Source: Candidatus Campbellbacteria bacterium
Lineage (GTDB): Bacteria > Patescibacteriota > Minisyncoccia > Phycocordibacterales > GCA-2747955
Direction of reading: 5' to 3'
NCBI GenBank assembly: GCA_002747955.1
Contig: PDQZ01000008.1
Location: 5,983 to 69,982, forward strand
Length of the DNA: 64,000 bases
The position numbers and the translations under genes are program-made. Under the pieces are notes generated by a model. It saw only the letters and a list, made by a program, of their open reading frames with translations. It did no database searches and was not told the origin of the DNA. Shown here in pieces: positions 6,338 through 47,118 of the stretch (within the stretch, counting starts at the first letter, position 1; every line of letters starts with the position of its first letter).

Positions 6338-9205
6338 ATGTCTATGACAAATAATTACAATCATAAAGAAACTGAAGATAAAATCAAAAAAAATTGGCAA
6401 GAAAATCAAGTTTCTCAAAAACTAAAAGAAAAGAACAAAAATGGAGAAAAATTTTATCTTTTAGATATGTTTACATACCCTTCGGCAACAGGTGTTCACA
6501 TGGGTCACGCTTTTGTTGGGTCTGTAACAGATGCACTTTACAGATATAAATCAATGAGAGGGTTTAATACTCTGCACCCTGGTGGGTTTGATTCTTTCGG
6601 TTTGCCTGCTGAAAACTTTGCTGTTCAAACAGGTATTCACCCTAAAACTTCGACTGAAGAAATAATGGAAAATTTTAAAAAGCAGTTTTCAAATGTTGGG
6701 ATTGATTATGAATTTCACGATGGTGTTATAACTTCAAGTCCAGAATATTACAGATGGACCCAATATCTTTTTGGAAAGTTTTTTGAAAACGGACTTGTTT
6801 ATAAAAAAAATACAAAAGCAAACTGGTGTGATTCTTGTAAAACAGTTATTGCAAACGAGCAAGTAGAAGGTGGAGTGTGTGAAAGATGTAAAACACAAAT
6901 TGTTCAAAAAGATATTCCATCTTGGATGTTTAAAATTACAGATTTTGCAGATGAGCTTATAAACGATTTAGACAAAGTTGACTGGCCAGAATCAACAAAG
7001 AAAAATCAAATAAACTGGATTGGAAAATCCGAAGGAGCAGAAATTGATTTTGATGTAGTTGAAAGTGAATATGTAGACATAAACAGAGACGGGGGAAAAG
7101 ACACATACCAGAACGGTGTTGAGGAAATTGAAAGACACAATGTGGTTGTAATTATTGAACACCCAGAAAAAGAAGAATTTTTATGTGTTAAATGGAAAAA
7201 AGTTGACTGGCAGGGATTTGTTACAGGTGGAATTGAAAACGGTGAAAGTGTGAAAGAAACTGCTTTAAAAGAAGTTGTTGAAGAAACAGGTTATCAAAAT
7301 CCAGAAATTGTAAAAGTTTATAACCAGTCTTCACACGGAAAGTTTTATCATGTTGGAAAAAAGGTAAATCGGTTTGCGCATTATAGAGTTGTGCATGTGA
7401 AACTTAAAGACTTAGAGCAAAAGGAAAGATCTCAAGAAGAGCAAGATATTGCAGATATTTTTTGGGTTCCAAAAAATGAGGTAAATGATTTTCTAAAAAG
7501 GGAAGATATGAAATATCCGTGGAGAGTGGTAAATGGGGAAAATGATTTTGGTCAAAAACTAAAAGTTTTTACAACAAGAGCCGATACCATTTTTGGTGCA
7601 ACTTATATGGTTGTGGCTCCTGAGCACAAACCTGTAAAAGAATTTTTAGAAAACGGAAAAATTCGAAATAAAAATGAGGTTCAAGATTATGTCAAAGAAA
7701 CAGAAAAAAAATCAGAACTTCAAAGACTTGAAGCTAAAGAAAAAACAGGGGTAAAACTTGAAGGTATTGAAGCTATAAACCCTGCAACAAAAAAACAAAT
7801 TCCAATTTTTATTTCAGACTATGTTTTGTCATCTTATGGAACAGGAGCAATTATGGCTGTGCCTGCACACGACGAACGAGATAACGAGTTTGCTCAAAAG
7901 TTTGGACTTGAAATTAAAGAAGTTGTAACTTCTGAAAACAAAAAAGAAGATAAAGTTTTCACAGACAAAGGAGTTTTGGTAAATTCAGAACGGTTTGATG
8001 GAAAAACTTCAGATGAAGCTATAGATGAAATTGTTCAATTTGTTGGTGGAAAAAAAGTTTCAAATTATAGATTGAGAGATTGGTCTATTTCTCGACAGAG
8101 ATATTGGGGTTGTCCAATTCCGATTGTTTATGACAAAAACGGTCAGGCAAAATTTGTGGGTGAAGAAAATTTGCCATGGACTCTTCCTGAAGATGTAGAT
8201 TTTGTTCCAGACGGAACAGCACCACTTGCAAAATCAAAAGAATTGAAAGAACGAACCCAAAAACTTTTTGGAGATGGTTTTACACCAGAAGTTGATACAA
8301 TGGATACTTTTGTTGATTCGTCTTGGTATTTCTTGCGATATCCTGATTCTGAAAATCAAGATGAATTTTGTTCAAAAGAAATATTGGAAAAGTTTTTGCC
8401 AGTTGATTTGTATATTGGGGGAGCAGAACACACTTACATGCACTTGCTTTACGCTCGATTCTTCACAAAAGCAATGAAAAAACTTGGACTTTTGAATTTT
8501 GATGAACCGTTTTTAAAACTTCGTCATCAGGGAATGGTTTGCGACGAACATGGAAAGAAAATGTCAAAATCAAAAGGAAATGTAGTAAATCCAGATGATG
8601 CAGTTGAAAGGTTTGGAGCAGATGCTACAAGAACTTATTTGTTGTTTTCATCACCGCTACAAGATGATGTGATCTGGAATGAAGATGGAGTGGTGGGAGC
8701 ATATAGATTTTTGGAAAAAGTTTTCAGACAGAAAAATAAAGTTGTAGATGAAGAGGTTTTGGAGGTTAAAAAAGAGCTTGCCAAGACTGAAAAGAAATTC
8801 ACACAACATATAGAAGATTTGAAGTTTAACACCGCTATTTCATTTTTGATGACATTTATAAACTTTTTGGACAAGCAGGAAAAAATTAATAAAAATGATT
8901 TTGAAGATTTTCTAAAAATGCTTTCTATTTTTGCGCCTTTTGTTTCAGACCAGCTTGCAGAGAAAAACTTGATTTTGGAAAATTGGCCAAAGTTTGATTC
9001 TGAACTTGTAAAAGAAGACAGTATTACAGTTGTGGTTCAGATAAACGGTAAAAAAAGAGCAGAGCTTGAAGTTTCACCTGAAATAAATCAGGATGAAATT
9101 GAAAAACTTGTTTTGGAAAATCAAGATGTTTTAAAATGGACTGAAGGCAAAGAGATTAAAAAAATTATTTATGTTAAAGGAAAGTTAGTTTCGGTTGTGG
9201 TTTAG
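6338..9205 (+). CDS. leuS: leucyl-tRNA synthetase with an inserted Nudix-like domain
   Basis: HIGH motif (HMGHAF), KMSKS motif, zinc knuckle CDSC...CERC, editing-domain VFTTRADTIFGATY; about 160-aa insert (aa 245-405) carrying Nudix box GGIENGESVKETALKEVVEETGY. Confidence 0.95.
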   Translation: MSMTNNYNHKETEDKIKKNWQENQVSQKLKEKNKNGEKFYLLDMFTYPSATGVHMGHAFVGSVTDALYRYKSMRGFNTLHPGGFDSFGLPAENFAVQTGIHPKTSTEEIMENFKKQFSNVGIDYEFHDGVITSSPEYYRWTQYLFGKFFENGLVYKKNTKANWCDSCKTVIANEQVEGGVCERCKTQIVQKDIPSWMFKITDFADELINDLDKVDWPESTKKNQINWIGKSEGAEIDFDVVESEYVDINRDGGKDTYQNGVEEIERHNVVVIIEHPEKEEFLCVKWKKVDWQGFVTGGIENGESVKETALKEVVEETGYQNPEIVKVYNQSSHGKFYHVGKKVNRFAHYRVVHVKLKDLEQKERSQEEQDIADIFWVPKNEVNDFLKREDMKYPWRVVNGENDFGQKLKVFTTRADTIFGATYMVVAPEHKPVKEFLENGKIRNKNEVQDYVKETEKKSELQRLEAKEKTGVKLEGIEAINPATKKQIPIFISDYVLSSYGTGAIMAVPAHDERDNEFAQKFGLEIKEVVTSENKKEDKVFTDKGVLVNSERFDGKTSDEAIDEIVQFVGGKKVSNYRLRDWSISRQRYWGCPIPIVYDKNGQAKFVGEENLPWTLPEDVDFVPDGTAPLAKSKELKERTQKLFGDGFTPEVDTMDTFVDSSWYFLRYPDSENQDEFCSKEILEKFLPVDLYIGGAEHTYMHLLYARFFTKAMKKLGLLNFDEPFLKLRHQGMVCDEHGKKMSKSKGNVVNPDDAVERFGADATRTYLLFSSPLQDDVIWNEDGVVGAYRFLEKVFRQKNKVVDEEVLEVKKELAKTEKKFTQHIEDLKFNTAISFLMTFINFLDKQEKINKNDFEDFLKMLSIFAPFVSDQLAEKNLILENWPKFDSELVKEDSITVVVQINGKKRAELEVSPEINQDEIEKLVLENQDVLKWTEGKEIKKIIYVKGKLVSVVV

Positions 9206-15041: not shown

Positions 15042-16781
15042 ATGGATACACAAAATATTCGAGATTACATTTTAGAAATGGATCTTTTAACAAAAGAAGA
15101 AGAAGAGAAAATAGAAGAGTTTATGTTTCAAAATGACAAAAACTTTTTAGATTCAATGTTCGAGCTTGATATTTTAGACAATCAAACTTTAAACAAAATC
15201 ACCGCTTCAATTTTAGGTACAAAATTTGTAAACCTAAAAGAAAAAATAATCGACTTTGAAACTTATTCGAAAATACCATTGCCAATTTCAGAAGAACACA
15301 ATTTAATTTGTTTTGAACAGAACGACAATTTTTTAAAAGTGGCTTTCAGTGATATTCTAAACATTCAAGTTTTAGAAGAAGTTTTTGCTCAAAATCAAAA
15401 AGTGGAGTTTTTCTATGCAGACAAAAATGAAATTTTAGAAAAAATCGCTCAATACAAAAAACTAATTGAGGAAAATGTTATTTTAAAAAATCAAAAATCT
15501 GTTTCTAAAATTTTAAAACTTGACGAGTTTGGTTTTAAAAATCAAAAAGATGTTCCACAAGAATACATCAACGACATTGTTTCAGACTTGAACACAGAAA
15601 AATTTGTCCAAGGACTTTTAGAACACGCCGTTTCTCAAAAAGCTGACTTTGTTTTCTTAACTCCATCTGACCAAGATATTTTAGTTTCTTTCAGAATTTT
15701 TGACCGATCTTATCAGATTATGCAAATTGATTTAAAAACTCTGTTTTCAATCGTTTCAAAACTTAAAGTTTTCTGTGATATAAATATTTTTGAAAAATCA
15801 CTCATTAAAGAGGGAAGCTTCAAAGCTGAAATTTTAGGCAAAGTTTACACGGTTTTTTTAACAATCGTTCATACAGATTTTGGAGAAGCAGTTACTTTAG
15901 AAATCACTCAAGACAAAAACTTTAAAGCAAATATTTTTGACTTAAGTTTAAAACAAAGACATTTGTTCTTATCTGCTTTGAAAAAAGATGCTGGTTTTTT
16001 CACTATTTTTGGAGAAGATGAATTTGCTAAAAAAGAAACTCTGTATTCATTTTTAGAAACCGATATTAAAAAAAACAAAGAAGTTTATTCTTTTGAAGTT
16101 AACCCGTCTTTAAATCTTTCTTATGTCAAACAAATTTCAGTGAACGAAAATGAAAATCTACTTCCTGTTTTTGAAAGCATTTTAAAAACAGAACCTGAAA
16201 CACTGGCTGTTGAAGATGTTAGAAAAACTTCTTTCCCAGCTTTGTTTAACTATACAAACTTTTCAAAAAAAGTTATTTTATCTTCAAATAAAAAAATCGA
16301 AAATTTTGTTCAAAACTTTCTAGATTTTGACTTTAACAAAGGGCAAGTGGTTAAAAACTTATCTATTTGTTTAAATCACACTGAATTTGGTTTGCTTCAA
16401 GATCAAAATACTAAAAAATATGTTTTGAAAAAAGATGATATTAAACTTATAAAATCATTTTTTACAAACGATCAATTGCAAGAACTTTTTGTTCAAAACG
16501 GTTTTTACAAAAAAAGAGTCTTTAGTTTAGAAAAAATTGACTTTTATACTAAAAAAACAAACAAAAAAGAAAAAAGTGTTTACAAAAAAGTTCAAGTTAC
16601 TAAAGGAATTTTTAATTTAGGTTTATTTTTAGAAAAATGTTTTTTGAACAAATATGATAAACTAAAAATTAAAAATGAAATCAAAAAGGAGGTTAAAAAA
16701 TCTGTTTTAGAAAACGCTTTGATTTTATCTGCTAAAAAAGTTGTCGATATAAAAGATGTTTTAAAATATTTGAAAAAGTAG
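15042..16781 (+). CDS. protein with GspE/PilB N-terminal (MshEN-like) domain, no ATPase domain
   Basis: N-terminal 140 aa resemble T2SS-E N-domain; no Walker motifs in remaining 440 aa. Confidence 0.3.
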   Translation: MDTQNIRDYILEMDLLTKEEEEKIEEFMFQNDKNFLDSMFELDILDNQTLNKITASILGTKFVNLKEKIIDFETYSKIPLPISEEHNLICFEQNDNFLKVAFSDILNIQVLEEVFAQNQKVEFFYADKNEILEKIAQYKKLIEENVILKNQKSVSKILKLDEFGFKNQKDVPQEYINDIVSDLNTEKFVQGLLEHAVSQKADFVFLTPSDQDILVSFRIFDRSYQIMQIDLKTLFSIVSKLKVFCDINIFEKSLIKEGSFKAEILGKVYTVFLTIVHTDFGEAVTLEITQDKNFKANIFDLSLKQRHLFLSALKKDAGFFTIFGEDEFAKKETLYSFLETDIKKNKEVYSFEVNPSLNLSYVKQISVNENENLLPVFESILKTEPETLAVEDVRKTSFPALFNYTNFSKKVILSSNKKIENFVQNFLDFDFNKGQVVKNLSICLNHTEFGLLQDQNTKKYVLKKDDIKLIKSFFTNDQLQELFVQNGFYKKRVFSLEKIDFYTKKTNKKEKSVYKKVQVTKGIFNLGLFLEKCFLNKYDKLKIKNEIKKEVKKSVLENALILSAKKVVDIKDVLKYLKK

Positions 16782-38503: not shown

Positions 38504-40012
38504 ATGAATAATAAAGAACATTCAAGCAGACAAAAAGAAATCAGAAATCTAAGAATTCAAAAAATTAAGAATCTAGAAAGTTTGGGATTAAGCGCTTACT
38601 TAAATCCAAAAGACACAAAACCAACACACACTTTAAAAGAAGTAGTGGATAATTTTGCAAAATTCAAAAGGCAAAAGAAAGACAAGAAATACAAACTTGT
38701 AGGAAGAATCATGATCAAAAGGGGAGCAGGGAAAATTGCTTTTGTAAAGTTTTTTGATGGAACAGAATATTTTCAAGCAGTTCTACAAGCCGATGTTTTG
38801 GGTAAAAAGAAAATGAAAATTTTTGATAAAAATTTTGACATGGGAGATTTTGTCATTTTCCAAGGAACTTTATTTAAAACTAAAAAAGGTGAAAAATCTT
38901 TGAAAGTTACTTCATTTAAAATGGCTGGAAAATCTATTTTGCCACTTCCAGAAAAATGGCACGGTATCACAGACATTGAAGAAAAATACAGAAAAAGATA
39001 TCTAGACGTTCTGTCTGATCAAAATGCTTTTGATAAATTCAAAAAACGGTCAGAAGTAATTCGTGAAATAAGAAATTTTATGGACAATGAAGGTTTTTTA
39101 GAAATTGAAACTCCTATTTTGCAAAACCAAGCTTCAGGAGCAATGGCTGAAACTTTCAACACTCACCACAACGATTACAACCTAGACATGGTTTTAAGAA
39201 TTTCACTTGAAGCTGAACACAAAATAGTTATGGCGGGAGGTTATCCAGCAGTTTACGAGATTGGAAAAAACTTCAGAAACGAAGGATCAGATTCAACACA
39301 TATTCAAGAGTTTACGATGATCGAATGGTATAAAGCTTACAGGGGCCTTGATTACAATATTAAACTTACAGAAAAACTTTTAAAACACTTGGCTAAAAAA
39401 GTTATCAAAAAAACTGTTTTTGAAATTAAAGACGAAAACGACAAAAAAGTAAAAGTGGACTTTTCAAAAGAATGGAAAAAAGTAAAGTTCAACGATTTGA
39501 TTAAAAAATATGCCAAAATAGATGTTCAAAAAGCAACCAGAAAAGAACTTGAAAAAAAAGCAATGGAACTTGGTGGAGTTAAAAAAGAAATTTTAAAAAT
39601 GTCTCACGGAAATTTACTTGATTTTATTTACAAAAAATCAGCTCGAAAAAAATTGATCAACCCAACTTTTGTTTTAAATTATCCAGGAAGTTTAAAACCT
39701 CTTGCAATTCAAAACGAAGATGGAACATCAGAAGTAGCGCAACTTGTAATCGGTGGAGCAGAAGTGACAAACCAATATGCCGAACTTGTAAACCCACTTG
39801 TTCAAAGAAAACTTTTAGAAGATCAGCTAAAAGCTAAAAAGTCAGGGGATAAAGAAGCCATGGATTTCAACTCAGATTTTTTAGAAGCAATGGAATATGG
39901 AATGCCTCCAATGACAGGATTTGGAATGGGAATAGATAGATTGATGGCGATTTTTACGGAGCAGGATAACTTACGAGATACGATATTGTTTCCCATCATC
40001 AAACCTAAATAA
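38504..40012 (+). CDS. lysS: lysyl-tRNA synthetase, class II
   Basis: OB anticodon-binding domain, FRNEGSDSTHIQEFTMIEWY, GGAEVTNQYAELVNP, GFGMGIDRLMAIFT. Confidence 0.9.
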   Translation: MNNKEHSSRQKEIRNLRIQKIKNLESLGLSAYLNPKDTKPTHTLKEVVDNFAKFKRQKKDKKYKLVGRIMIKRGAGKIAFVKFFDGTEYFQAVLQADVLGKKKMKIFDKNFDMGDFVIFQGTLFKTKKGEKSLKVTSFKMAGKSILPLPEKWHGITDIEEKYRKRYLDVLSDQNAFDKFKKRSEVIREIRNFMDNEGFLEIETPILQNQASGAMAETFNTHHNDYNLDMVLRISLEAEHKIVMAGGYPAVYEIGKNFRNEGSDSTHIQEFTMIEWYKAYRGLDYNIKLTEKLLKHLAKKVIKKTVFEIKDENDKKVKVDFSKEWKKVKFNDLIKKYAKIDVQKATRKELEKKAMELGGVKKEILKMSHGNLLDFIYKKSARKKLINPTFVLNYPGSLKPLAIQNEDGTSEVAQLVIGGAEVTNQYAELVNPLVQRKLLEDQLKAKKSGDKEAMDFNSDFLEAMEYGMPPMTGFGMGIDRLMAIFTEQDNLRDTILFPIIKPK

Positions 40013-40719: not shown

Positions 40720-40767
40720 AGATGTATTATAGCAAAAAAATTAAAATATGTTAAAATACTTTTTAAC

Positions 40768-40856
40768 GGAGAAGTGGCTGAGTGGTCGAAAGCGCGTCCC
40801 TGCTAAGGACGTGTCCGGGTTAAACTGGACCGGAGGTTCGAATCCTCTCTTCTCCG
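40768..40856 (+). tRNA. tRNA-Ser (anticodon GCT), type II with long variable arm, discriminator G
   Basis: GGAGAAG acceptor, anticodon stem CGTCC/GGACG loop CTGCTAA, T-arm AGGTTCGAATCCT. Confidence 0.8.
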
Positions 40857-44401: not shown

Positions 44402-44869
44402 ATGACAAAAACACAAAAAGGGTTCACATTGATTGAACTTCTAGTAGTAATCGCAATTATCGGTATTTTAGCAGGAATTCTATTCGTTGCTATTGACCCT
44501 AAAGCGCAAACAGATAAAGCAGACGATGCAGCTAATAAATCAGCAATCGCATCAATCAGAACACAAGCAGCTCTTGTATTTAGTTCAACAGGTAGCTACC
44601 TAACAGTATTTGAAGATGATACTTCTACTTCTACTTCTGCAGATGCAAATGTTGCAAAACTTTACAATTCTTTACCAGGAACAGACGGGACTGAAAAAAA
44701 ATCTTATTCAACAGCTAATGCATGGTTTGTTGCAGCAACAATGAACAACGATAAAGATAATGGAACTACAGGTTCAAAAATTTATTGTGCTGACTCAGAT
44801 GGATTTACAGGATATGTTCAAACTATGCCAGGAGATACTGATACTGCCTGTGGACCAGCAGCAACATAG
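44402..44869 (+). CDS. type IV pilin-like protein (prepilin N-terminal methylation motif)
   Basis: KGFTLIELLVVIAIIGILAG. Confidence 0.8.
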   Translation: MTKTQKGFTLIELLVVIAIIGILAGILFVAIDPKAQTDKADDAANKSAIASIRTQAALVFSSTGSYLTVFEDDTSTSTSADANVAKLYNSLPGTDGTEKKSYSTANAWFVAATMNNDKDNGTTGSKIYCADSDGFTGYVQTMPGDTDTACGPAAT

Positions 44870-44991: not shown

Positions 44992-45390
44992 ATGAAAAAT
45001 AATAAAGGTTTTACATTAATAGAGCTTTTAGTTGTAATTGCTCTTATTGGTATTATAGCAGGATTACTTTTTGTTTATATCAACCCTCAAAAAAGAACAG
45101 ATGACGCGAACGACTCAAAAGTCAAATCAAATTTAGCAGGGGTTGTTTCTCAAGCATCAGTTTCTTTTTCAAATAACGGAAATGTTTATACAGAAGTTTG
45201 TAATGAAAACGAGGTTAGAAAACTTGCAGGTTTAGAAGCTGGAGAAAAATACCCAGGAGTATGTAACGCAGGTGAACACTTTTGGGTGGTTTCACGAAAA
45301 CTTCCAAGTGGAAAGTATTGGTGTGTTGACTGGAAGTCAAATAAAAAAGAACTGGACAGTCAAATTACAAGTACACAAACTGAGTGCTAG
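44992..45390 (+). CDS. type IV pilin-like protein
   Basis: KGFTLIELLVVIALIGIIAG. Confidence 0.8.
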   Translation: MKNNKGFTLIELLVVIALIGIIAGLLFVYINPQKRTDDANDSKVKSNLAGVVSQASVSFSNNGNVYTEVCNENEVRKLAGLEAGEKYPGVCNAGEHFWVVSRKLPSGKYWCVDWKSNKKELDSQITSTQTEC

Positions 45391-45437: not shown

Positions 45438-45481
45438 TTGAAAGGGTATTTACTTAATTTAAAAATATGTTAAAATATATA

Positions 45482-45585
45482 TGCTTGCAAGGCGATGACA
45501 TTCACCAGTTTCCACCCCATCTTCCGGTTTGGGGTTGGTGAAAAGAATCATTTTGGCCCAGACTTTAGTCTGGGTCCTTTTTTTA
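45482..45585 (+). ncRNA. candidate small RNA between promoter-like TAAAAT box and strong terminator
   Basis: about 100 nt, internal pairing CACCAGTTTCCACCCCA / TGGGGTTGGTG; GGCCCAGACTTTAGTCTGGGTCC + T7. Confidence 0.25.
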
Positions 45586-45629
45586 AATTTTGAATTTTTT
45601 AAAATTTTTGGTAAAATAAGTTCAATGCC

Positions 45630-45825
45630 AATGAAGCTTTAGCACAGTGGAGGTAAAAATTAAATATAGAAAGAAAGTGTTTGAAATTTTATATTTCAAA
45701 AAACAGGGTGGCACCGCGGTTTGGTTGCCCGAAATTTAGCAAAGCTTGATTTCGGGTCAAATAAAAAATCGTCCCTGTGAATTATTATAAACTTAATAAT
45801 TTACAGGAACGATTTTTTGTTTTCT
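45630..45825 (+). promoter_or_regulatory. T-box riboswitch leader of serS
   Basis: AACAGGGTGGCACCGCGG (45701-45718) matches T-box consensus AGGGUGGNACCGCG; CAGGG can pair CCCTG of downstream terminator hairpin (45765-45818); upstream TTGAAT-16-TAAAAT promoter at 45592-45625. Confidence 0.5.
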
Positions 45826-45852
45826 GTAAAGAAAAATAAAAGAAAAAATAAA

Positions 45853-47118
45853 ATGTTAGATATAAAATTTATAAGAGAAAATTTAGATGCTGTAAAAGCT
45901 GGTGCTAAAAAAAAGCATGTAGATATAAATTTGGACAAACTTGTAGAGCTTGATGATACAAGAAAAGATTTACAACAACAAATTGATACAAAAAAACAAC
46001 AACAAAATGAAAACTCATCAGATATTCCAAATTTAGAAGGAGACGAGAAGCAAGCAAAAATCCAAGAGCTTTCTGTTTTAAAAGCAGAAATTCAAGAATT
46101 GCAAGACAAATATAATCAAAATCAAAAAGAATGGAAAGCTTTAATGTTGCAAGTTCCGCAAATTCCAGCAGATGAAGTTCCAGAAGGAGATGATGATGCT
46201 GACAACAAAGAAATCAAAGTGTGGGGAGAAAAGCCACAATTTGATTTTGAACCAAAATCTCATATTGATCTTATGGAAGAGCTTGATATGGTAGATTTTA
46301 AAAGAGGATCAAAAATTCACGGTTTCAGAGGATACTATTTGAAAAATGATGGAGCGAAACTTTCTTGGGCTATTTGGAACTATGCAAACGAATTTTTTGG
46401 ACAAAAAGGTTTTGTACCAATGTTGCCACCTGCAATTGTGAAAGAAGAAAACTTGTATGGAACAGGGCACTTACCAAATGATGCCGAAGATGTTTATAAC
46501 ACTCAAGACAAAGACTACTTGATCGGGACAGCTGAAATCCCTGTAACAGGTTATCACTCAGGAGAAGTTTTACAAAACGGTGAACTTCCAAAAAAATACC
46601 TAGGATTTTCTCCTTGTTACAGAAGAGAAGCTGGGTCTTATGGAAAAGACACAAAAGGGCTAATTCGGGTACATGAGTTTTACAAAGTAGAACAAGTTAT
46701 TTTATGTCAGGCAAGTAAAGAAGAAACTCATAAGTTCCATGAATGGATAAACAGAAACACAGAAGAGTTTGTTGAAACTTTAGGTATTCCTTATCACACA
46801 GTTTTAAACTGTGGTGGAGATTTAGGGCAAGGACAAGTTAAAAAGTTTGATATTGAACTTTGGGTTCCAGGTGAAGAAACTTACAGAGAAATTTCATCAG
46901 CATCTTGTTTTTATGATTTTCAAGCAAGAAGATTTAATATAAGATATAAAGATCAAAATGGTGAGACAAAATTTGTTCATACATTAAACTCAACTGCTAT
47001 TCCAACTCCAAGAATTTTAGTTTCTTTGGTTGAAAACTTTCAAACAAAAGACGGGGAAATTATTATTCCAGAACCATTGAGAAAATATATGGACGGAAGA
47101 GAAAAAATTACAAAATAA
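45853..47118 (+). CDS. serS: seryl-tRNA synthetase
   Basis: MLDIKFIREN start, class II motifs FRREAGS, GGDLGQGQ; listed start 45817 lies in terminator T-run. Confidence 0.9.
   Translation: MLDIKFIRENLDAVKAGAKKKHVDINLDKLVELDDTRKDLQQQIDTKKQQQNENSSDIPNLEGDEKQAKIQELSVLKAEIQELQDKYNQNQKEWKALMLQVPQIPADEVPEGDDDADNKEIKVWGEKPQFDFEPKSHIDLMEELDMVDFKRGSKIHGFRGYYLKNDGAKLSWAIWNYANEFFGQKGFVPMLPPAIVKEENLYGTGHLPNDAEDVYNTQDKDYLIGTAEIPVTGYHSGEVLQNGELPKKYLGFSPCYRREAGSYGKDTKGLIRVHEFYKVEQVILCQASKEETHKFHEWINRNTEEFVETLGIPYHTVLNCGGDLGQGQVKKFDIELWVPGEETYREISSASCFYDFQARRFNIRYKDQNGETKFVHTLNSTAIPTPRILVSLVENFQTKDGEIIIPEPLRKYMDGREKITK

Follow-up and report, generated by a model that had tools for sequence, protein, structure and literature searches.

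A probable T-box riboswitch with a minimal decoding module upstream of serS in a Candidatus Campbellbacteria genome, and similar leaders in other CPR bacteria

Introduction

Does the leader of serS, the seryl-tRNA synthetase gene of a Candidatus Campbellbacteria bacterium (Patescibacteria; candidate phyla radiation, CPR), sense the charging state of a tRNA and, if so, with which structural elements? The question is raised by a T-box 14-mer, AGGGUGGCACCGCG (= AGGGTGGCACCGCG), which lies upstream of serS at positions 45705–45718 of the 64-kb stretch of DNA that was analysed (hereafter the window; all positions without a locus name refer to it). Structural work on T-box riboswitches knows two modes of holding the tRNA: a long Stem I that docks on the tRNA elbow, and a short Stem I assisted by Stem II and a pseudoknot. 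In the analysis described here, in which the evidence for the serS T-box is entirely computational, the leader is very probably a transcription-attenuating T-box riboswitch with a minimal decoding module, coupling serS to the charging of tRNA-Ser(GCU).

Genomic context of the serS leader

The consensus T-box sequence AGGGUGGNACCGCG is matched exactly at 45705–45718, and this is the sole such site in the window. The 18-mer AACAGGGTGGCACCGCGG on which the original prediction was based is indeed a T-box sequence, but its true span is 45702–45719, one base off the position that had been given. Taken alone, the motif is only weakly significant, because GGTGGNACCRCG at one mismatch or fewer, which occurs once in the window, is expected 0.12 times on shuffling and finds at least one match in 11 of 100 shuffles. 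The extended pattern TGAA-N8-20-TGGAG-N30-60-GGGTGGNACCGCG, which joins the T-box to two K-turn strands at the observed spacing, matches the window once and none of 100 shuffles. The same organism has been assembled independently (L213, SRR6011893), with an identical 296-nt leader, and the leader is therefore not an assembly artefact. The features of the locus are as follows.

40768–40856, + strand: tRNA-Ser(GCU), the presumed ligand (anticodon GCU, discriminator G73)
45590–45617, + strand: sigma-70-like promoter, TTGAAT-16 nt-TAAAAT with an extended TG, from a consensus promoter scan
45627–45654, + strand: mini Stem I, the putative 28-nt decoding module, from sequence, RF00230 alignment and covariation
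45641–45643, + strand: predicted specifier AGC (Ser), with U45640 on its 5' side and the purine A45644 on its 3' side, complementary to the anticodon GCU
45655–45674, + strand: A/U-rich, single-stranded linker of 20 nt, in which no helix is predicted
45675–45702, + strand: Stem III module from folding, comprising AAGUG (RRRxG) at 45675–45679, a hairpin at 45680–45687/45693–45700 and AA at 45701–45702
45703–45778, + strand: predicted antiterminator, from the fold of 45697–45780 (-31.0 kcal/mol, z -4.0)
45727–45757, + strand: lineage-specific 31-nt hairpin in the A2 loop (-16.3 kcal/mol, z -4.8)
45759–45822, + strand: intrinsic terminator hairpin (-30.7 kcal/mol, z -10.9)
45853–47118, + strand: serS, seryl-tRNA synthetase of 421 aa, the presumed regulated gene, from Pfam and homologue starts

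The start of serS was placed at the ATG at 45853, as the homologues, which carry the Pfam domains Seryl_tRNA_N and tRNA-synt_2b, begin with MLDIKFIREN. The promoter lies directly 3' of the terminator of the preceding transcription unit (45555–45584), and we infer a transcription start near 45624, 3 nt 5' of Stem I, which would leave only about 50 nt between the start and the purine string of the discriminator domain. The gene for tRNA-Ser(GCU) ends in ...CUUCUCC-G, giving the discriminator G73, and is followed by CCG, so that CCA is not fully encoded. The variable base of the T-box bulge is C and is complementary to G73 of this tRNA, confirming the earlier proposal that the UGGC bulge is matched to the G discriminator of the tRNA-Ser in the window.

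Several other features of the window may be recorded here. Between a pilin-like ORF and the serS leader, a possible small RNA gene (45449–45584, + strand) consists of a promoter-like site (45449–45476), whose -10 context AAATATGTTAAAATA is identical to that of a site just upstream of tRNA-Ser (40743–40759), followed by a structured RNA of about 100 nt (-36 kcal/mol) and the intrinsic terminator at 45555–45584; compared with Rfam it gave nothing beyond a weak anti-hemB match, and no sequence similar to 45477–45584 was found in any fetched locus. Immediately upstream of the serS region, two adjacent ORFs (44402–44869 and 44992–45390, + strand) have type IV pilin-like N-termini (KGFTLIELLVVIAIIG), and a T2SSE-type ATPase gene lies at 15042–16781. 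The leucyl-tRNA synthetase ORF at 6338–9205 (+ strand, 955 aa) unusually has a NUDIX domain (Pfam E 2.5e-15, residues 268–388) fused into it ahead of the editing domain. A T-box is absent both from this gene and from the class IIb synthetase gene at 38504–40012.

An antiterminator in competition with a terminator

As predicted from sequence and folding, the discriminator domain of the leader is canonical in every defining detail. Stem III, a hairpin of 8 bp (-5.5 kcal/mol, z -2.4), is flanked by the 5'-RRRxG ... AA-3' purine string, the motif that defines the discriminator domain (PMC7583486). In the antiterminator, helix A1 pairs ACAGGG (45703–45708) with CCCUGU (45773–45778), the 7-nt bulge UGGCACC (45709–45715) is unpaired in the fold, and helix A2 pairs GCGGUUU (45716–45722) with AAAUCGU (45766–45772), its first pair being the wobble G45716·U45772; the A1 helix, the UGGNACC bulge, the A2 helix and the G·U first pair of a T-box antiterminator are thus all present. 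RF00230 pairs the T-box with a nearer UUGCCCG, although the distal UCGUCCCUGU is the better partner. The hairpin at 45727–45757 in the A2 loop is absent from the orthologous leader L083, and a smaller, 4-bp hairpin occupies the same site in L084.

The terminator hairpin is followed by a U-run at 45813–45818 and then by G and UUUU (U6-G-U4), and its 5' arm contains the 3' strands of both A1 and A2 (45766–45778). Terminator and antiterminator therefore share this strand and are mutually exclusive, which bears out the arrangement foreseen in the original prediction, in which the CAGGG next to the box pairs with CCCTG in the 5' arm of the terminator; the pair is ACAGGG–CCCUGU. For 45697–45825, the terminator state is calculated at -51.0 kcal/mol and the enforced antiterminator state at -39.3 kcal/mol, so that termination is the default, as in known T-boxes.

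This arrangement also bears on the possibility that the leader acts on translation, like the Actinobacterial ileS T-boxes, and would sequester the ribosome-binding site. A short Stem I that carries the specifier in its terminal loop or close by, as described below, is an Actinobacterial trait (PMC7583486; PMC11297988), but the competing hairpin here has U6-G-U4 behind it, stops 30 nt short of the ATG and contains no Shine-Dalgarno sequence, and the S-turn of Stem II and the IIA/B pseudoknot required by the Actinobacterial class are lacking. A translational mechanism is accordingly regarded as extremely unlikely, and a transcription-attenuating T-box is preferred.

A decoding module of 28 nucleotides

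The 5' part of the leader departs from the T-box norm. Mini Stem I has the sequence GCC-AAU-GA-A-GCU-[UUAGCAC]-AGU-G-GA-GGU, in which a C-stem pairs GCC (45627–45629) with GGU (45652–45654), a bulge AAU (45630–45632) is followed by the tandem G·A pairs G45633·A45651 and A45634·G45650, and the NC helix consists of A35·G49 (the third K-turn pair, A·G), G36–U48, C37–G47 and U38–A46. The arrangement GCC-AAU-GA...GA-GGU corresponds to the K-turn consensus, and we take it to be a standard K-turn; a GA motif at the base of Stem I is thus indicated by sequence and covariation only. In isolation, Stem I folds with -3.2 kcal/mol (z +0.8) in the nearest-neighbour model, which does not capture K-turns.

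Above three Watson–Crick or wobble pairs, the terminal loop comprises the 7 nt UUAGCAC (45639–45645). Of the seven triplets in UUUAGCACA, AGC alone fits serS, a trailing purine, the anticodon GCU and the combination of G73 with bulge C. The specifier codon, the purine behind it and the match between the bulge and the tRNA discriminator are therefore all found together, and the Ser codon which the original prediction expected in a specifier loop turns out to be AGC, in the loop of Stem I. The same prediction supposed that Stem I might be reduced; it is, but the extent of the reduction was underestimated, as both the distal platform and Stem II are missing. No Stem II, S-turn, IIA/B pseudoknot or F-box (CGUUA) was found in the linker at 45655–45674 by sequence, folding or RF00230 alignment. 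The distal Stem I platform that contacts the tRNA elbow (an AG bulge and a distal loop forming interdigitated T-loops) is likewise absent, because Stem I totals 28 nt and the promoter leaves no room upstream.

These losses explain the behaviour of the Rfam model. At the gathering score of RF00230 (93 bits) there is no match to the serS leader, and in E-value mode it scores 26.4 bits against this threshold (E 5.6e-4 in a 521-nt search), because nothing remains of Stem I but a K-turn, a helix of 3–4 bp and a 7-nt loop. In the alignment, the K-turn, Stem III and the T-box are retained, 9 nt stand in place of 80 Stem I positions and the Stem II blocks are deleted; related mini leaders score 32–52 bits on RF00230 or are undetected. 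The original prediction had named two absences that would speak against a T-box: that of an RF00230 match above threshold, which is what we find, and that of a plausible Stem I or specifier loop, which is not, since the mini Stem I with its specifier covaries and is confirmed by orthologous leaders.

An ordinary full-length T-box, whose long Stem I or Stem II was missed through great divergence or a position further upstream, would be suggested by the end-to-end alignment to RF00230 (model positions 1–219), albeit at a low score, and by the fact that the start site comes from a consensus promoter scan only. However, the terminator and promoter immediately upstream leave only 3 nt before Stem I, and the same holds elsewhere: -10 boxes lie 8–12 nt 5' of Stem I in six members of the class described below, including L083, L084, L087, L163 and L193, where they directly precede it. 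In L083 the upstream gene ends at 553, TATAAT lies at approximately 549–554 and Stem I starts at approximately 563. The end-to-end alignment itself is obtained only with the Stem I and Stem II deletions given above, and the A/U-rich linker forms no helix. We therefore consider a hidden full-length structure to be very unlikely and retain the minimal Stem I.

Orthologous leaders and helix covariation

The closest SerS matches, with 66–77% identity, belong to Campbellbacteria, Pacebacteria and Kaiserbacteria. Of the seven closer relatives examined, two (L083 and L084) have the leader and five do not: no leader precedes serS in P0003 (CorA-serS, with a gap of 24 nt), P0005, P0006, P0007 or P0009. 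Among 80 serS loci of GTDB Patescibacteria (55–68% identity), no TGGNACC was found within 450 nt upstream and our covariance model R1 found nothing.

The leader of L083 (SerS 77% identical) scores 48.9 bits on RF00230 (E 9.4e-10) and lacks the insertion in the antiterminator. Its Stem I, AUC-AGU-GA-A-ACU-[UUAGCAG]-AGU-G-GA-GAU, differs from that of the window by a change from C–G to U–A in the C-stem and from G–U to A–U in the NC stem, with the AGC loop conserved. In the same locus (L083, 710–995), the serS ATG follows the T-box terminator at a distance of about 270 nt; the stretch between them contains the direct repeat GGTCCGATTTGTGGG twice and may represent an insertion or a second regulatory element. 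The leader of L084 (SerS 74% identical), which precedes an mscS-serS operon, was found only with R1 (49.1 bits). Its Stem I, ACC-AAU-GA-A-GUAGG-[GUAGCGC]-CCUAC-G-GA-GGU, with a helix of 5 bp and a loop of 7 nt, has the size of an anticodon stem-loop in tRNA. The AGC specifier is conserved before serS in both loci.

Covariance model R1 was built from eight rows and comprises 15 reliably aligned pairs only, because the inner Stem I pairs and Stem III are placed wrongly in the MAFFT alignments A2 and A3. It was used to align 19 sequences (alignment A4), in which 94.7% of the cells form standard pairs, compared with 43–47% when the partners are slid; as A4 is fitted to our own model R1, these pairing counts are somewhat inflated, and the T-box core and the K-turn GA bases in A4 are fixed by the search pattern described below. 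Cells with changes on both sides number 42, against 13.1 ± 3.0 in shuffles, none of 500 of which reaches the observed value, and the covariation score is 0.512 versus 0.209. All four Watson–Crick types occur at C-stem pair 4–38 (CG 8, GC 7, UA 3, AU 1), and NC-stem pair 13–32 has CG 8, AU 4, GC 4 and UA 3.

These comparisons argue against the view that the leader is a decayed remnant which no longer senses tRNA and leaves serS under nothing more than a constitutive, leaky terminator. The loss of the leader from most related serS genes would be in keeping with decay, as would a decoding module without either of the known affinity boosters, the elbow platform and Stem II, and the 31-nt insertion in the antiterminator. 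Nevertheless, the specifier loop, K-turn core, purine string, G·U wobble and T-box bulge are all intact, and the elements are conserved in three serS lineages (74–77% protein identity) with compensatory changes in the helices. The minimal design moreover recurs with the correct codon before aspS, glyS and an asparaginase gene in distant CPR bacteria, which would not be expected of independent decay, and functional T-boxes can accommodate an insertion in helix A2, as stem Sa shows (PMC9177973). Decay is thus judged unlikely, and a leader that still senses tRNA remains the favoured interpretation.

Minimal leaders before other genes

A metagenome scan with the pattern TGAA-N8-20-TGGAG-N30-60-GGGTGGNACCGCG returned 119 stretches. 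The majority are glyQS-type leaders of the ordinary kind or matches that arise by chance in GC-rich coding DNA, and a subset carries the same mini Stem I; further members of the class were added through protein look-ups and model R1. Besides the serS leaders, the class contains the following members, given by loop codon and bulge base.

GAC, bulge C, before aspS: L168, L209, L212 and L138
GAC, bulge C, before an unassigned downstream ORF: L091, L099 and L186
GAC, bulge C, before an asparaginase gene (Pfam E 1.3e-52): L193
GAU, bulge C, before an unassigned ORF: L163
GGC, bulge A (UGGA), before glyS: L087, L183 and L188
GGC, bulge A, before unassigned ORFs: L192 and L198

In every case in which the downstream gene can be identified, the loop codon agrees with it. 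The codon is preceded by U in all 17 mini members and followed by A in 16 of them and by G in L084. Most members were retrieved by a pattern that fixes TGAA, TGGAG and the T-box; the Stem I elements of L209, L212, L084 and L193 are off-pattern (AAAGA, UAAGA and AACGA; CGGAG and CCGAG) and are therefore independent of its built-in bias. These off-pattern members keep the tandem GA·GA core, with variation in the K-turn bases on either side of it. In L193, Stem I (GC-UUUGACACA-GC) is nearly that of the window, with GAC replacing AGC. The AspRS of L168 is a nondiscriminating enzyme from Paceibacterota or Kaiserbacteria, and the GlyRS of L087 is from Shapirobacteria. As with serS, the leader is not universal: the aspS relatives L210 and L211 (79–81% identical) have none. 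Two candidates were set aside: for L151 a mini T-box was ruled out, the site being an ordinary glyQS-type T-box or a chance match, and L105 was left out of the class as it has an F-box-like CGCGUUAAG in addition to a short Stem I.

Some members differ in what they precede or in how they would act. The GAC (Asp) mini T-box of L193 (455–1330, - strand) is predicted to control the asparaginase gene which it precedes; together with a nondiscriminating AspRS, asparaginase would yield aspartate from asparagine when tRNA-Asp is uncharged. The GAC mini T-boxes of L099 (1107–1260) and L186 (47–145, - strand) are without a Stem III hairpin and without a U-run terminator; downstream of them GGUGCC(A) occurs twice, and its copies are complementary to one another as well as to the T-box bulge GGCACC, which points to an expression platform of another kind. 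The ORFs behind mini T-boxes with GAU or GGC in L163 (8901–9530), L192 (4973–5590) and L198 (8433–9470) do not encode synthetases; one of the encoded proteins has 163 aa and a sub-threshold HEPN (RiboL-PSP) match, and the other two have 168 aa (no Pfam match) and 297 aa. In L109 (1975–2100) and L197 (8925–9050, - strand), a short Stem I (loop CAAUAA or GAAUA) is accompanied by a UGGU bulge and by additional structure upstream; AUA, AAU and CAA all come into question as specifier, and the downstream ORFs are only short and odd.

Discussion

With the canonical transcriptional T-boxes (RF00230; for example Bacillus subtilis tyrS and Firmicutes serS), the serS leader shares the T-box 14-mer, the UGGN-ACC bulge, helices A1 and A2 with the G·U wobble, Stem III with RRRxG...AA, the competition between terminator and antiterminator, the basal K-turn of Stem I, a specifier with a purine on its 3' side and a bulge base N that matches the tRNA discriminator. 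Unlike them, its Stem I ends at the specifier, which has become a 7-nt terminal loop, and it has no AG bulge/distal-loop platform, no Stem II and no IIA/B pseudoknot.

Two known classes share part of this reduction. The glyQS-type glycine T-boxes likewise lack Stem II and the pseudoknot, have a flexible linker between Stem I and Stem III and are transcriptional, and the argument made for them from a strong, G/C-rich codon–anticodon duplex may apply in part to AGC, GAC and GGC. However, glyQS leaders keep a long Stem I with the elbow-docking platform and read Gly, whereas the serS leader has neither feature and reads Ser. The Actinobacterial ileS translational T-boxes (short or 'ultrashort' Stem I, class II in TBDB) have the same truncated, platform-less Stem I with a retained K-turn. 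In them, the S-turn of Stem II and the IIA/B pseudoknot compensate for the elbow contact, whereas the serS leader has neither, and a sequestrator of the ribosome-binding site stands where the serS leader has an intrinsic terminator with a U-run. The 45727–45757 hairpin in A2, with its smaller counterpart in L084, occupies a position analogous to that of stem Sa in the staphylococcal glyS T-boxes (PMC9177973), although sequence and host are unrelated. By homology of its predicted discriminator domain the serS leader is thus a T-box, and on the evidence of its sequence it falls outside both the Actinobacterial class II and the glyQS archetype.

Both tRNA binding by the leader and its regulatory outcome are what we infer from these features. 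The first 28 nt would fold as a K-turn, a short helix and the loop UU-AGC-AC, which would present AGC to the anticodon GCU; with a U on the 5' side of the codon and a purine on its 3' side, this loop would resemble an anticodon loop. A 20-nt unstructured linker would then lead to the canonical discriminator domain. With uncharged tRNA, the 3' GCCA would pair with UGGC and stabilize the antiterminator, and RNA polymerase would read into serS. With charged tRNA or with none, the terminator at 45759–45822, which is the more stable, would form and transcription would stop at the U-run.

The contact between the Stem I loop and the tRNA would probably be a loop–loop 'kissing' interaction. Two tRNAs whose anticodons are complementary form a complex that far exceeds a free trinucleotide duplex in stability, and the specifiers seen here (AGC, GAC, GAU and GGC) offer one to three G–C pairs each. 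Against sufficient affinity of the mini module stands the published view that a platform-less Stem I barely binds tRNA in the absence of Stem II (PMC7583486; PMC11297988).

A full-text search limited to non-subscription literature returned no paper linking T-boxes with CPR, Patescibacteria or Parcubacteria, and the structural variant appears to be undescribed, a statement of moderate, not high, certainty. The models behind TBDB are RF00230 and an Actinobacterial one (PMC7778990), and such leaders would therefore be missed. More generally, annotation by the RF00230 gathering score, in the manner of Rfam or TBDB, misses the mini class entirely.

As a tentative proposal, which we hold to be possible though somewhat short of probable, the CPR T-boxes may form an unrecognized third archetype, in which a K-turn is combined with a mimic of the anticodon stem-loop and the kissing contact together with pairing of the 3' NCCA would suffice. 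Such a module would have a helix of 3–6 bp and a loop of 6–9 nt reading Y-U-NNN-R, with no elbow platform and no Stem II in tRNA recognition.

Conclusions

In conclusion, the serS leader and its CPR relatives have neither of the two known modes of holding the tRNA, yet the codon tracks the gene and the helices covary. If these leaders work, minimal natural tRNA recognition and charge sensing would need a decoding hairpin of about 28 nt and a discriminator of about 100 nt, and such a minimal T-box would be of interest for riboswitch engineering and for ideas on T-box evolution. The third archetype, if true, would be the smallest natural tRNA-sensing riboswitch and could represent either an ancestral T-box relic or the extreme streamlining of genome reduction. 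For the organisms themselves, the leaders predict that CPR bacteria, whose genomes are reduced, regulate aminoacyl-tRNA synthetases in response to amino acids.
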